From assembly GCF_054482595.1 (NCBI RefSeq), contig NZ_CM137008.1: DNA of 64,000 nt; one strand, given 5' to 3'. A program made the position numbers. Below are positions 29,401 to 32,400 of this stretch, piece by piece; position 1 is the stretch's first letter, and the number at the start of each line of letters is the position of its first letter.

Positions 29401-32400
29401 CAGCCTCCTGCATACCATAGTTCAACGATAACCAGTATGAATCTTTCAGGCTGGGATAAAGCGCGCACAGTTTCCAGGCGCGTTTGGCTTTAAGCGGCAT
29501 AGAGGCTTGCACCGTGAAATGCTGCGCATCATGCCAGCGCAACAGGTTATCAGCCGAAAATGCCGGCAACATGAAAAGGGAAAGAAGTAAAAATAGCAGT
29601 ACGCGCATGATAGCCTCATCAATAATAAGGCTTTATGCTAGATGCATTCCGCTTTGCGACTCAACATTTTTCACCTAAAGGATGACAAAATCACATAAAT
29701 AATTTAAAAATCATAGCATTAGATTACTTAATGATTAAATAATAGACTGCAAAACGCGACAAAACACAACATATCCAGTCACTATGAATCAACTACTTAG
29801 ATGGTATTAGTGACCTGTAACAGAGCATTAGCGCAAGGTGATTTTTGTCTTCTTGCGCTAATTTTTTGTCATCAAACCTGTCGCACTCCAGAGAAGCGCA
29901 ACGCCTCGCAATCCAGTGCAAAGCTTTGCGTGCCCCCACTACGACCTGCATAACCAGTAAGAAGATAGCAGTGATGTCAAACGACGCAGATGTCTTCTTT
30001 TCTTTCATGACTTCTCCAGCATGCATATCTTTCTGCCATGACTGAAGTGAATGCCTGTTATGAGCGAGGATTGGCCCAGACTTAGATAATGAGAGAGCAC
30101 GGTGCTAATACCCAGACACGTCACCAGCCAGGCAACAACAGATGGGGTCATAGCAACATTTTGGAAGGTATCTTCGTATCATGATGTGGTTAAATAGACA
30201 TAATTTAACCCAATGGAATTTTCGCCATGCTAACCTTCTGGCACGAATATTCAGATCTCATATCCGCATTTTTAGCAGCTCTTTTAGGTGGCTGTTTCAC
30301 GATGATTGGAGTGACAACTCAGGTGAAACAGCAGGCAAAACAGCAGGCAACAGCGGCCAGAGAGAAGCGTATAACAACGCTATTGGGTGTCAGAGAGGAA
30401 ATAGACTCACTGATTAAACTGTATCAGGCCAGAATGGCAGAAGAAATCGAAAAATACGACCGGAACTCACCGTTCGATAACATTTTCCCCATTACTCAAA
30501 ACTACTTCACGTTCTATGAAGCCAACTCGGCATCCCTACCTGAAGTTCATAGAGAAACACTCTCAAAAATTGTGGCTTTTTATACAAGCGCAAGAAGCCT
30601 AATTGATTCCTATCGCGGCAATAATGCGCTTATCGAACGGCTAGACTCCACGCAGGTTGCAAGTGACATTACTGGCAACAAAGAACATCTTGCACACCTG
30701 AAAAGATACACAATCCTAGCCACAGAGTACGGCCGCGGATTAATGATGATTCATGATGAGGTCATGCTCCGCTATAAACAGGTTATAGAAGCCATCGATG
30801 GTGAAATCTCACAGCTACAATGCAGTTAGCACTACAACCTGTCCGCATATTGAGCGACACGGTCGGATTTAGTGGGCTGAATGTCCGTTGTGAGCACTTA
30901 ACGGACATTGCTAACCGCCTTCTGAGTGAATTATCAGGGAGTAGGTCAAGATGGGACGTAGAGCACAAATCGTGGACAACATTTTTCGGGCACTTTTTAA
31001 AAATGACTAAACTGGTAAAATTCGATGTTATGAGCTGCGCTTTTAAGGGCCGTTAGTCGCATAGATTGTTAATCTATTCAGCGTTACTCATTCTCCAGAT
31101 TACCAGTTTAAATGGATGCACGGCCACCATGTTAAAATCTAACGCGGCCCTAAAGTCAGAGTGTAATGGGAAATGCAAGAAGTTATTTTCGTGCGCGTTC
31201 ACTGGCGCACCTTGAGCAACCATTTCTCAATGCGTCTTAAAAGAGATGACTTGACTAAATTATGTATGCACTATCTGAATCTGATTTTTTTACTTAAAAG
31301 GGGGTTTTCAATGACAGCAATAGCCTGCTGGCTAAACAGGGAAGAAGGGGAAAGTATCTGGGCCGTAAGCGACTCAAGAATCACCCAGCATGAAAGTGTA
31401 ATGACAAATCACTGTCCTAAACTATTCTCGATTCCGGTATCAGTTATTCGCTCCAATGACATATACCGTCTATCTCCGGAAAAAATTATGGAGTTTGGTT
31501 TCGGCTTTGCAGGAGGAACAATGATCGGTATAAATGTGAAGGAGTTACTTGCCGTATCATTATCTTCATTACATGAAGTTAATTATTATGATGTTCAGCA
31601 GCCGGAGTTGACTTATGATAGTTACCCGAGTCTTTATGAAATTGCAGTTTTAACAAAGGGAATCGCAGAAAAATTTATACTGGATATTGGCCAGTTTTTT
31701 CCCCGTTCTGTAGCAACGGAGATGATTATTTACGGATTCTGTTTCAGAACACAGGTACATAAAATCATTAAGATCTACAACACCCCATCAAACCCCACTA
31801 ATCTTGTAATTGAGGACTGCCTTGACCTGACAACAGGTACCCCGGTAGTCTTGGGAGACAGAAAGCAGCAGTTTCGGGAAGATATTGAGATGACGAGGGG
31901 GCGTTTTGAGAATGGCACACTTAACTGGTGGCGGGCGCCATTTATCGCGTTAAACAACTGGATATCACAGGACACCGTAAATACAATTGGTGGGTATATT
32001 CAGTTCTCAATGGCGAATAGAATTGGCGCAAGAAATCTTTTTATGTCCAGCTCAGAGTCTAACCCCCTTGATATGACCTATGCCGGAATCAGTAATACAA
32101 GTGCTCCAGGATTTACCATTGGACAACTTAGTATTATGCCAATGTTAGGTATGACCCTTCCTGGGGAAAATGGCTGGCCATACGGCGATCAAATACTCCA
32201 TAATGATTAGAAGGTTAAGTATTTTATATTGGATATATGGCTATTGTGCTGCCATGATTCTAACAAATTATGCTTAAGAGGTGGTGCAACTCCTCTCATA
32301 CAAAAAATACGTAAAATCAGTAACGGCTGGAAATAATTCAATACATACACTCTCGAAAGTGCATCAGCCAACCGCAGCACGTCTTGCATACGGCGTGTCT

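Follow-up and report, generated by a model that had tools for sequence, protein, structure and literature searches.

A membrane-tethered helical-bundle protein at the end of an Escherichia coli lambdoid prophage, a candidate for one-protein anti-phage function

Just inside one end of a lambdoid prophage inserted at torT of Escherichia coli lies a small plus-strand gene, here called gene A (30227..30829), which is the subject of this analysis; it was studied within a 64,000-nucleotide stretch of DNA (the window, to which all unqualified coordinates refer) from contig NZ_CM137008.1 of NCBI RefSeq assembly GCF_054482595.1. The 200-amino acid (aa) product is apparently anchored in the membrane by a single pass and otherwise folded as a helical bundle, and it has many relatives of the same kind, which make up a large family without annotation. 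It is a testable candidate for a new anti-phage function exercised by one protein, and the genomic company that it keeps leads us, tentatively, to read it as a phage-exclusion or abortive-infection (Abi) determinant that would work at the cytoplasmic face of the inner membrane.

Gene A is a real gene. An earlier note on this DNA, made from the sequence alone, had proposed a 200-aa open reading frame (ORF) here, and the same ORF, with an ATG start, is annotated in RefSeq (WP_021577015.1), where it is labelled "hypothetical protein", as it is in every source. The note had named a lack of conservation, even among closely related prophages, as grounds for doubting it; what is found is orthologs with 85-98% aa identity in eight genera (Serratia, Cronobacter, Dickeya, Buttiauxella, Kluyvera, Enterobacter, Citrobacter and Salmonella), and a ratio of nonsynonymous to synonymous substitution (dN/dS) of 0.08-0.29 in 21 pairwise comparisons, indicating purifying selection. 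The wider family, collected by searching 1.84 billion representative proteins with a profile and clustered at 50% identity, comprises 757 clusters at E<=1e-3 and 263 at E<=1e-10. Its members are nearly all about 200 aa long and are matched over their full length; a few copies are truncated or frameshifted (P0025, P0026 and P0266). An alignment of 80 of these sequences shows a conserved, glycine-rich transmembrane (TM) segment, GAxIGGxFTLxGV, two further motifs common to the family, YPVxQDYFTVYxxNA and IVxTYxxAKxLxDSxRxNN, and a set of near-invariant residues: G22, E58, Y66, F94, N100, I115, Y119, D127, N132, N133 and Y168. A profile search of the PDB sequences finds nothing under E 0.1, and searches of the literature on the accession, on integron and prophage defence, on proteasome-like defence and on the lambda genes ea59 and ea31 turned up no account of the family.

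The one N-terminal hydrophobic helix and the charged, probably helical remainder described in the earlier note are both borne out. The mean Kyte-Doolittle hydropathy over 19-residue windows is 2.16 for residues 11-29 vs. 0.58 for the next best window. The TM helix (residues ~11-31, LISAFLAALLGGCFTMIGVTT; codons at 30257..30319, plus strand) includes the glycines G21, G22 and G28, which are invariant in close homologs, G22 being at least 90% conserved across the 80 family members. In the AlphaFold2 model, run on the 80-sequence alignment and returned with a predicted local distance difference test score (pLDDT) of 96.9 and a predicted template modelling score (pTM) of 0.85, an unbroken helix extends from residue 3 to residue 75, the TM portion passing directly into the bundle; residues 76-106 form a conserved loop and a pair of short helices, and two long helices, 109-149 and 152-199, complete the model. 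The tandem DNA repeat of the earlier note is also present, the 11-mer ACAGCAGGCAA occurring at 30328 and again at 30340, but the true unit is 12 nt long: AACAGCAGGCAA is duplicated in frame at 30327..30350 (plus strand), in the membrane-adjacent linker, and encodes K34-Q-Q-A-K-Q-Q-A41 (KQQAKQQA). It is the sole exact 12-nt tandem duplication within the window. Close orthologs keep QVKQQAKQQA at the protein level, and the wider family does not, for which reason we regard the duplication as a minor trait of the linker.

The predicted topology is N-out, with the bundle in the cytoplasm. Throughout the 80-member alignment the tail in front of the TM helix is short (mean 9.6 aa) and acidic, and in 77 of the 80 there are more lysines and arginines within the 15 residues after the helix than before it (mean 3.5 vs. 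0.21). Several longer variants (P0065, P0088, P0108, P0121, P0142 and P0115) have about 60 hydrophilic residues and an apparent cleavable signal peptide or lipobox, as read from the sequence, in front of the same TM helix; in variants of this signal-peptide type the segment before the helix would therefore be periplasmic and the bundle cytoplasmic. Read in the same way, P0115 and P0125 have an apparent polytopic membrane domain C-terminal to the bundle.

Gene A stands on its own as a cassette and is not confined to this phage. When the region is compared across genera by blastn, homology is confined to 30061-30895, that is, to the gene itself with up to ~165 bp upstream and up to ~65 bp downstream, and it is this limitation to the gene and short flanks that marks it as an autonomous unit. 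Other moron-like traits are its deviating guanine-cytosine (GC) content, 44% vs. 54-56% in the host and tail genes on either side, and its position in the slot that is held by ea59 and ea31 in lambda. The upstream region that moves with the gene (30061..30226, plus strand, the homology beginning at 30061-30123) contains the near-invariant GGTTAAATAGACATAATTTAACC in an alignment of six genera, and a candidate promoter composed of a -35-like GTATCA (30176-30181), a 17-bp spacer and a -10 element, CATAAT (30199-30204). Overlapping this candidate -10 is a perfect 8-bp inverted repeat, GGTTAAAT-N7-ATTTAACC (30188-30195/30203-30210), nearly invariant in the six genera and not unusually stable as RNA (z -0.63), which could be an operator for some regulator or a hairpin of the 5' untranslated region. 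At the other end, within the ~65 bp that accompany the gene on its downstream side, is a 3' hairpin (30880..30909, plus strand) with an 11-bp stem and no T-run; the fold of 30826-30925 has a free energy of -31.8 kcal/mol (z -2.47), and the hairpin is kept at the same place in other genera with its stem bases changed.

The earlier note had argued that in a lysogen gene A would need a promoter of its own. That the upstream ~165 bp with its CATAAT, together with the 3' hairpin, accompanies the gene in six genera speaks indirectly for such a promoter and makes self-expression plausible, but a consensus scan called no sigma-70 promoter upstream of the gene, and no terminator either; the candidate promoter would have been missed because its -35 matches at only 3 of 6 positions. 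Three E. coli genomes, M8 (locus L047, 4001-4156), MS 119-7 and CFIAFB20190172, contain the first 156 nt of the conserved upstream region without gene A, and this remnant is bordered by other cargo, namely genes for a 205-aa hypothetical protein and for a protein with a protein-kinase domain, a capsid fragment, a GIY-YIG gene and pinE. Possibly, cargo is exchanged with this upstream segment as a shared recombination flank.

Gene A and its relatives move about as cassettes of one gene, lodged in variable accessory slots in phages, satellites, phage-plasmids and integrons. Within E. coli, the intact gene is present in 8 of 5426 complete genomes, with deleted copies in two and only the upstream 156 nt in three. 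What comes after it is different in each genus. Downstream of it, in the window and in strain NADC1036, is a proteasome-like gene, here called gene B; in E. coli TL20 and in an IMG/VR prophage there is instead a gene of 445-447 aa (445 aa in TL20, where it takes the place of gene B). The Serratia copy is followed by a 261-aa gene and then by Septu, with PtuA/PtuB about 1.3 kb downstream of gene A; the Cronobacter copy, which is next to icd, by a DUF4238 gene; and the Kluyvera copy by a 269-aa gene. Nothing follows it in Dickeya, where a PDC-S37/Hhe helicase gene is convergent with it, nor in two kinds of phage-plasmid; the phage-plasmids that bear it include SSU5-like ones, and there the gene stands alone. 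In Buttiauxella the Uzume gene UzuA is 2.8 kb away, and in a metagenome-assembled genome a family member shares an island with a RelA_SpoT/PDC-S33 gene and a type I restriction-modification system. Gene A lies less than 2 kb from the contig end in four of six IMG/VR contigs.

More distant relatives are found in other kinds of element. A scan of genome contigs with a narrower profile returned three loci. In Photobacterium sanctipauli (locus L014), a 35%-identical homolog (ORF 182-748; tblastn match 194-808) is a single-gene integron cassette within a co-oriented array that has 7-8 attC-like repeats between its ORFs. There is no attC at the window copy of gene A. Proteins identical to the Photobacterium cassette homolog occur in Vibrio vulnificus and V. 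parahaemolyticus. One distant member occupies the integrase-proximal slot of a satellite-like element with an integrase, a helicase-like gene and a capsid gene, and another belongs to a capsid-encoding satellite-like element that has AlpA and a D5-type primase, where it lies between the modules for capsid and replication. Members seen in metagenomes lie in co-oriented arrays of small ORFs, one of which also has two AAA_15/AAA_21 pairs.

Some details of these loci may be recorded here. On metagenome contig Ga0377185_001806 (locus L042, 800-1290, 2960-3300 and 5600-5860), co-oriented modules, among them two pairs of an AAA_15/AAA_21 ATPase with a small partner and one with the gene A homolog, are set apart by long intergenic elements that consist of heptamer repeats (GCTGAAA/GCTCAAA and their complement); the elements are not attC-like. 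In a Pluralibacter/Klebsiella satellite-like element (locus L027, 6621-7133), a 170-aa ORF begins 15 nt downstream of the family member, and in a metagenome-assembled genome (locus L031, 5250-5909) a 219-aa ORF lies 92 nt upstream of one; neither ORF has a PADLOC match. With such closely linked neighbours, some subfamilies of the gene A family may act together with a partner.

A one-protein exclusion or Abi role is favoured because the slot of gene A holds a Septu-like pair in lambda, because the gene recurs in sites of immunity cargo and beside defence genes, and because its membrane anchor and cytoplasmic domain are arranged as in AbiP and PdpSau. Under such a role, gene A would be a self-promoted accessory gene, or moron, in the att-proximal variable slot of a lambdoid prophage. 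Its own promoter would drive its expression in the lysogen, and in lytic growth it might be read from the anti-terminated pL transcript too, like the ea genes of lambda. The product would be a single-pass inner-membrane protein with an acidic N-tail of ~10 aa in the periplasm, whose glycine-rich TM helix runs unbroken into a cytoplasmic bundle of ~165 aa with three long and two short helices. E58, Y66, F94, N100, Y119, D127, N132, N133 and Y168 would recognise a phage component, after which the protein would either hinder the entry of the genome from the cytoplasmic side or associate with itself through its TM helix and so damage membrane integrity.

The earlier note had seen a likeness to small superinfection-exclusion (Sie) or Abi membrane proteins. 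The accessory and defence hot spots and the Septu, Uzume and PDC neighbours agree with that likeness; at the level of homology it does not hold, and this is the first of several points that weigh against an anti-phage role. Library and hhalign searches detect no homology of gene A to any validated defence, Sie or Abi protein, the 80-sequence profile reaching hhalign probabilities of only 0.2 vs. P22 SieB and 0.5 vs. HK97 gp15. The gene A protein has no match in Pfam, PADLOC 2.0, PHROGs or NCBIfam, the 80 family members give nothing consistent in Pfam, PADLOC or PHROGs, and tblastn of the protein against 50,697 sequenced phage records yields no match. The argument from defence neighbourhoods comes from about a dozen contexts inspected by hand and is anecdotal rather than statistical; in several of the contexts no defence gene can be recognised in the vicinity, and accessory slots also carry genes unrelated to defence. 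The missing promoter call noted above counts on the same side.

For the family as a whole a broader interpretation can be entertained, though we consider it rather doubtful at this stage: that it is an unnamed, widespread family of one-protein anti-phage determinants, each with an N-out single-pass anchor and a cytoplasmic bundle with conserved polar and aromatic residues, spread as minimal cassettes by way of prophage ends, satellites, phage-plasmids and integrons. The variants with a periplasmic N-domain or a polytopic C-terminal domain would then point to a membrane sensor that also acts on the membrane.

Among the alternatives to an exclusion or Abi role, the main one is an accessory function unrelated to phage defence, which is possible though somewhat less likely than the role preferred here. 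Gene A might be a lysogenic-conversion or fitness factor acting on a host inner-membrane protein or on the envelope, or a factor in inter-element competition or anti-defence, which merely shares its slots with other cargo. The lack of defence homology is in keeping with this, as are a helical-bundle fold that is common to sensor and adaptor domains of many kinds and the contexts that have no recognisable defence gene: the Enterobacter phage-plasmid, where it lies between metabolic-type genes, Cronobacter, where it is beside DUF4238 and LysR genes, and Kluyvera. Such a role accounts less well for the recurrence of the gene near integrases, att sites, satellite hot spots, integron arrays and Septu, Uzume and PDC genes, or for the fact that gene A replaces the Septu-like pair of the lambda slot.

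Some Sie proteins of lactococcal phages are thought to block injection from outside the cytoplasm, and a periplasm-facing protein of type II topology (N-in/C-out) could act in this way here. We think this unlikely. The positive-inside rule places the C-terminus inside in 77 of the 80 members, the variants with an apparent signal peptide or lipobox before the TM helix put the bundle in the cytoplasm, and the short forms have neither a second TM helix nor a signal-peptidase site. A cytoplasmic bundle fits better with sensing from inside than with a periplasmic injection block, and, within the exclusion or Abi reading, we think either cytoplasmic sensing with membrane damage or interference with entry from inside the more likely mechanism.

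Gene B (31311..32210, plus strand; 299 aa, WP_024248228.1) raises the question of whether gene A is part of a larger system. It has the proteasome-β/HslV-like fold of the N-terminal nucleophile (Ntn) hydrolases according to its AlphaFold2 model (pLDDT 83) and Foldseek, which returns 309 PDB matches at E<=1e-3, the best at E 5e-8 and the top ones all 20S β subunits; it has no match in Pfam, PADLOC or NCBIfam. Its 22 homologs all begin MTAIACW, with T2, D21 and K37 invariant throughout, as would suit a free-standing Ntn hydrolase that uses a Thr1/Asp/Lys catalytic set; the roles of the residues are assigned by analogy with the canonical proteasome triad. The RefSeq call for EC5502 makes gene B 345 aa long (WP_233337191.1; 31173-32210 in the window, 7474-8511 in locus L001), while other records use the 299-aa start. 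The longer call looks over-extended, since all 22 homologs start at MTAIACW and this start (31311) is preceded by AAGGGGG.

A two-gene system, with A as membrane sensor or anchor and B as Thr-protease effector, would explain why the two lie on the same strand and why a 2.5-kb block containing both (29915..32404, plus strand) moves as a unit, the copies in the lambdoid torT prophage and in an argW/intS prophage unrelated to it being 99% identical; its place in NADC1036 and Bongo is between intS and pinE. We nevertheless regard it as very improbable, and the distribution of the two genes largely rules it out. Gene A occurs without B in at least ten other contexts (among them Serratia, Cronobacter, Dickeya, Kluyvera, Buttiauxella, phage-plasmids, the integron, satellite-like elements and E. 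coli TL20), and homologs of gene B occur without A on a conjugative element, in a P2-like prophage beside ogr genes, and in a Photobacterium island with integrase, HNH and Mrr genes. In addition, 481 bp and the hairpin after A separate the two, and the inter-genus DNA homology ends ~65 bp past the stop codon of gene A. Because each is found without the other in many places, we take A and B to be two adjacent cassettes rather than one system; gene B may be an uncharacterised accessory or defence gene by itself. The last alternative, that gene A is a spurious or decaying ORF with no function, could appeal to the "hypothetical protein" label, to its rarity in E. coli and to the three truncated or frameshifted copies in the family, but is ruled out by the conservation data, that is, by the low dN/dS and the conserved motifs of ~757 clusters, with the high pLDDT of the model pointing the same way.

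The position of gene A, which the earlier note placed immediately inside attR as the first gene past a tI-like terminator, is as described there. The torCAD-torR-torT region of E. coli occupies 24-29.6 kb of the window, and the prophage begins past 29680, at torT. Thousands of genomes, including BW25113, match positions 1-281 of a query comprising 29400-29950, so that homology with prophage-free E. coli stops at 29680, the right-hand limit of the attR junction in the torT-torS intergenic region (29665..29680, the left limit of ~29665 being an estimate); gene A starts 547 bp inside this point. A presumed homolog of the lambda attP P-arm, with the region of arm-type Int sites, lies on the minus strand at 29778..29826, where the window, compared by eye, reads as the beginning of that arm in reverse complement; lambda-related phage records match 29761-30070 at 93.7% DNA identity. 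The tI/sib-like intrinsic terminator (29827..29868, plus strand) consists of a hairpin with a 12-bp GC-rich stem (29827-29862) and a following U6; its fold, at -20 kcal/mol (z -3.66), is matched in stability by 0 of 200 shuffles. Gene A is the first sizeable plus-strand ORF past this hairpin. Two small minus-strand ORFs between the terminator and gene A (77 and 48 aa) were considered as conserved partners or type I toxins and rejected, being interrupted or frameshifted in Serratia and Kluyvera.

On the plus strand the order after the terminator is gene A, gene B and a homolog of lambda Ea47 (32618..33877), which forms the inner edge of the variable slot and is 97.9% identical in DNA sequence to lambda ea47 (phrog_19262, E 9e-292). 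Its GC content is 31%, vs. 52% for the whole window, and phrog_19262 is listed as of unknown function, though the gene is conserved in lambda and relatives. Beyond it, on the minus strand, are genes for tail-fibre assembly, the tail fibre, lom and J. A query spanning torT, attR and the P-arm is matched over at least 80% of its length by about 196 E. coli genomes, which is consistent with a related prophage at the same site, but the whole 4.3-kb block is present in only four records, three of them at the chromosomal torT site. Plasmid pSM107_MCR (NZ_CP130669.1, a 111-kb IncI2 plasmid) has the same prophage end, with 100% identity over both cassettes, ea47, the tail fibre and lom, adjoining a site-specific integrase and the pilV shufflon; a lambdoid prophage appears to have integrated into this conjugative plasmid.

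Comparison with lambda itself is instructive with regard to the slot. There, ea59 and ea31 lie between att/tI and ea47, on the same strand, in the interval where genes A and B are found here, and both are read from the anti-terminated pL transcript. Ea59 matches the PADLOC models PtuA (E 5e-184) and PDC-M01A (E 4e-201; locus L039, NC_001416, 2510-4974). A PDC-M01B match in the same lambda scan (E 5.8e-113), for which the summary output does not name the member, is most simply Ea31, annotated as an HNH endonuclease, and the two together look like a Septu-like pair of ATPase and HNH protein. Their likeness to gene A is positional, that of a swapped cassette, and not functional, the proteins being unrelated. 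Thus, whatever gene A does, the att-ea47 interval is an exchangeable cargo slot, with a Septu-like pair in lambda and a membrane protein and proteasome-like hydrolase here.

There are already known cases of small membrane proteins that are encoded at the ends of prophages and keep other phages out. P22 SieB (192 aa) and the HK97 moron product gp15 (62 aa) are, like the gene A product, small prophage-encoded proteins; sieB is annotated with its own promoter and gp15 with a putative terminator after it, and both gp15 and gene A look like inserted self-contained units. They differ from gene A in size, fold and genomic position, gene A also being found in integrons and chromosomal islands, and no PHROG with a Sie annotation is matched by gene A or its family. 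Two other assignments were tried and rejected. With PADLOC-DB 2.0.0 the only matches of gene A are to ZorB/MotB, at E 0.002-0.006, the better one limited to residues 4-54 around the TM helix, and no model is matched by more than one of the 80 family members; as the Zorya protein ZorB (MotB-like) it fails on the weakness of the match (15.7 bits), on the absence of an OmpA/MotB domain by Pfam, and on its neighbours, which are the proteasome-like gene and ea47 rather than ZorA. The four-helix-bundle sensors (the 4HB_MCP type of Tar, Tsr and PilJ, the TorS sensor and DUF3829) resemble it at the level of fold only; there is no Pfam match, there is a single TM helix, and the protein ends with the bundle.

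Brigantia, a single-gene defence system carried on an integron cassette of V. cholerae, is described with a TM domain as its sole known domain (bioRxiv 10.1101/2024.07.02.601686). The likeness to the gene A family is one of description, that of an integron-cassette protein with a TM segment and no recognisable domain, and there is no V. cholerae member among the named family hits. What is new in the gene A family is that it has no detectable homology to the known examples tested, has a confidently predicted fold, is unnamed in the libraries searched and is widespread. If the defence reading is true, gene A would be a self-contained immunity gene of 600 bp, unrelated in fold and sequence to known Sie and Abi proteins, and would represent a new sensor/effector architecture among single-gene defences, drawn from a family of several hundred clusters that annotation resources leave unnamed.

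The closest parallels in architecture are lactococcal AbiP and PdpSau of a Staphylococcus aureus prophage, in both of which an N-terminal TM helix is followed by a remainder that is reportedly cytoplasmic; proteins of this type are reported to have an OB-fold-like (oligonucleotide/oligosaccharide-binding), positively charged and probably nucleic-acid-binding C-terminal domain, and PdpSau to alter membrane potential and permeability on infection (PMC10127798). Gene A shares with them its single-gene nature, its carriage by prophages and other mobile elements, its N-terminal TM anchor and, by prediction, its cytoplasmic domain. There is no sequence similarity, and their OB-fold-like domain contrasts with the all-helical bundle of gene A; PdpSau is moreover longer (278 aa vs. 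200) and is encoded beside the lysis module rather than at att. The effect of PdpSau on the membrane is, all the same, the kind of outcome proposed for gene A, which, should it prove to act in defence, would offer a handle on how a membrane-tethered cytoplasmic bundle detects infection.

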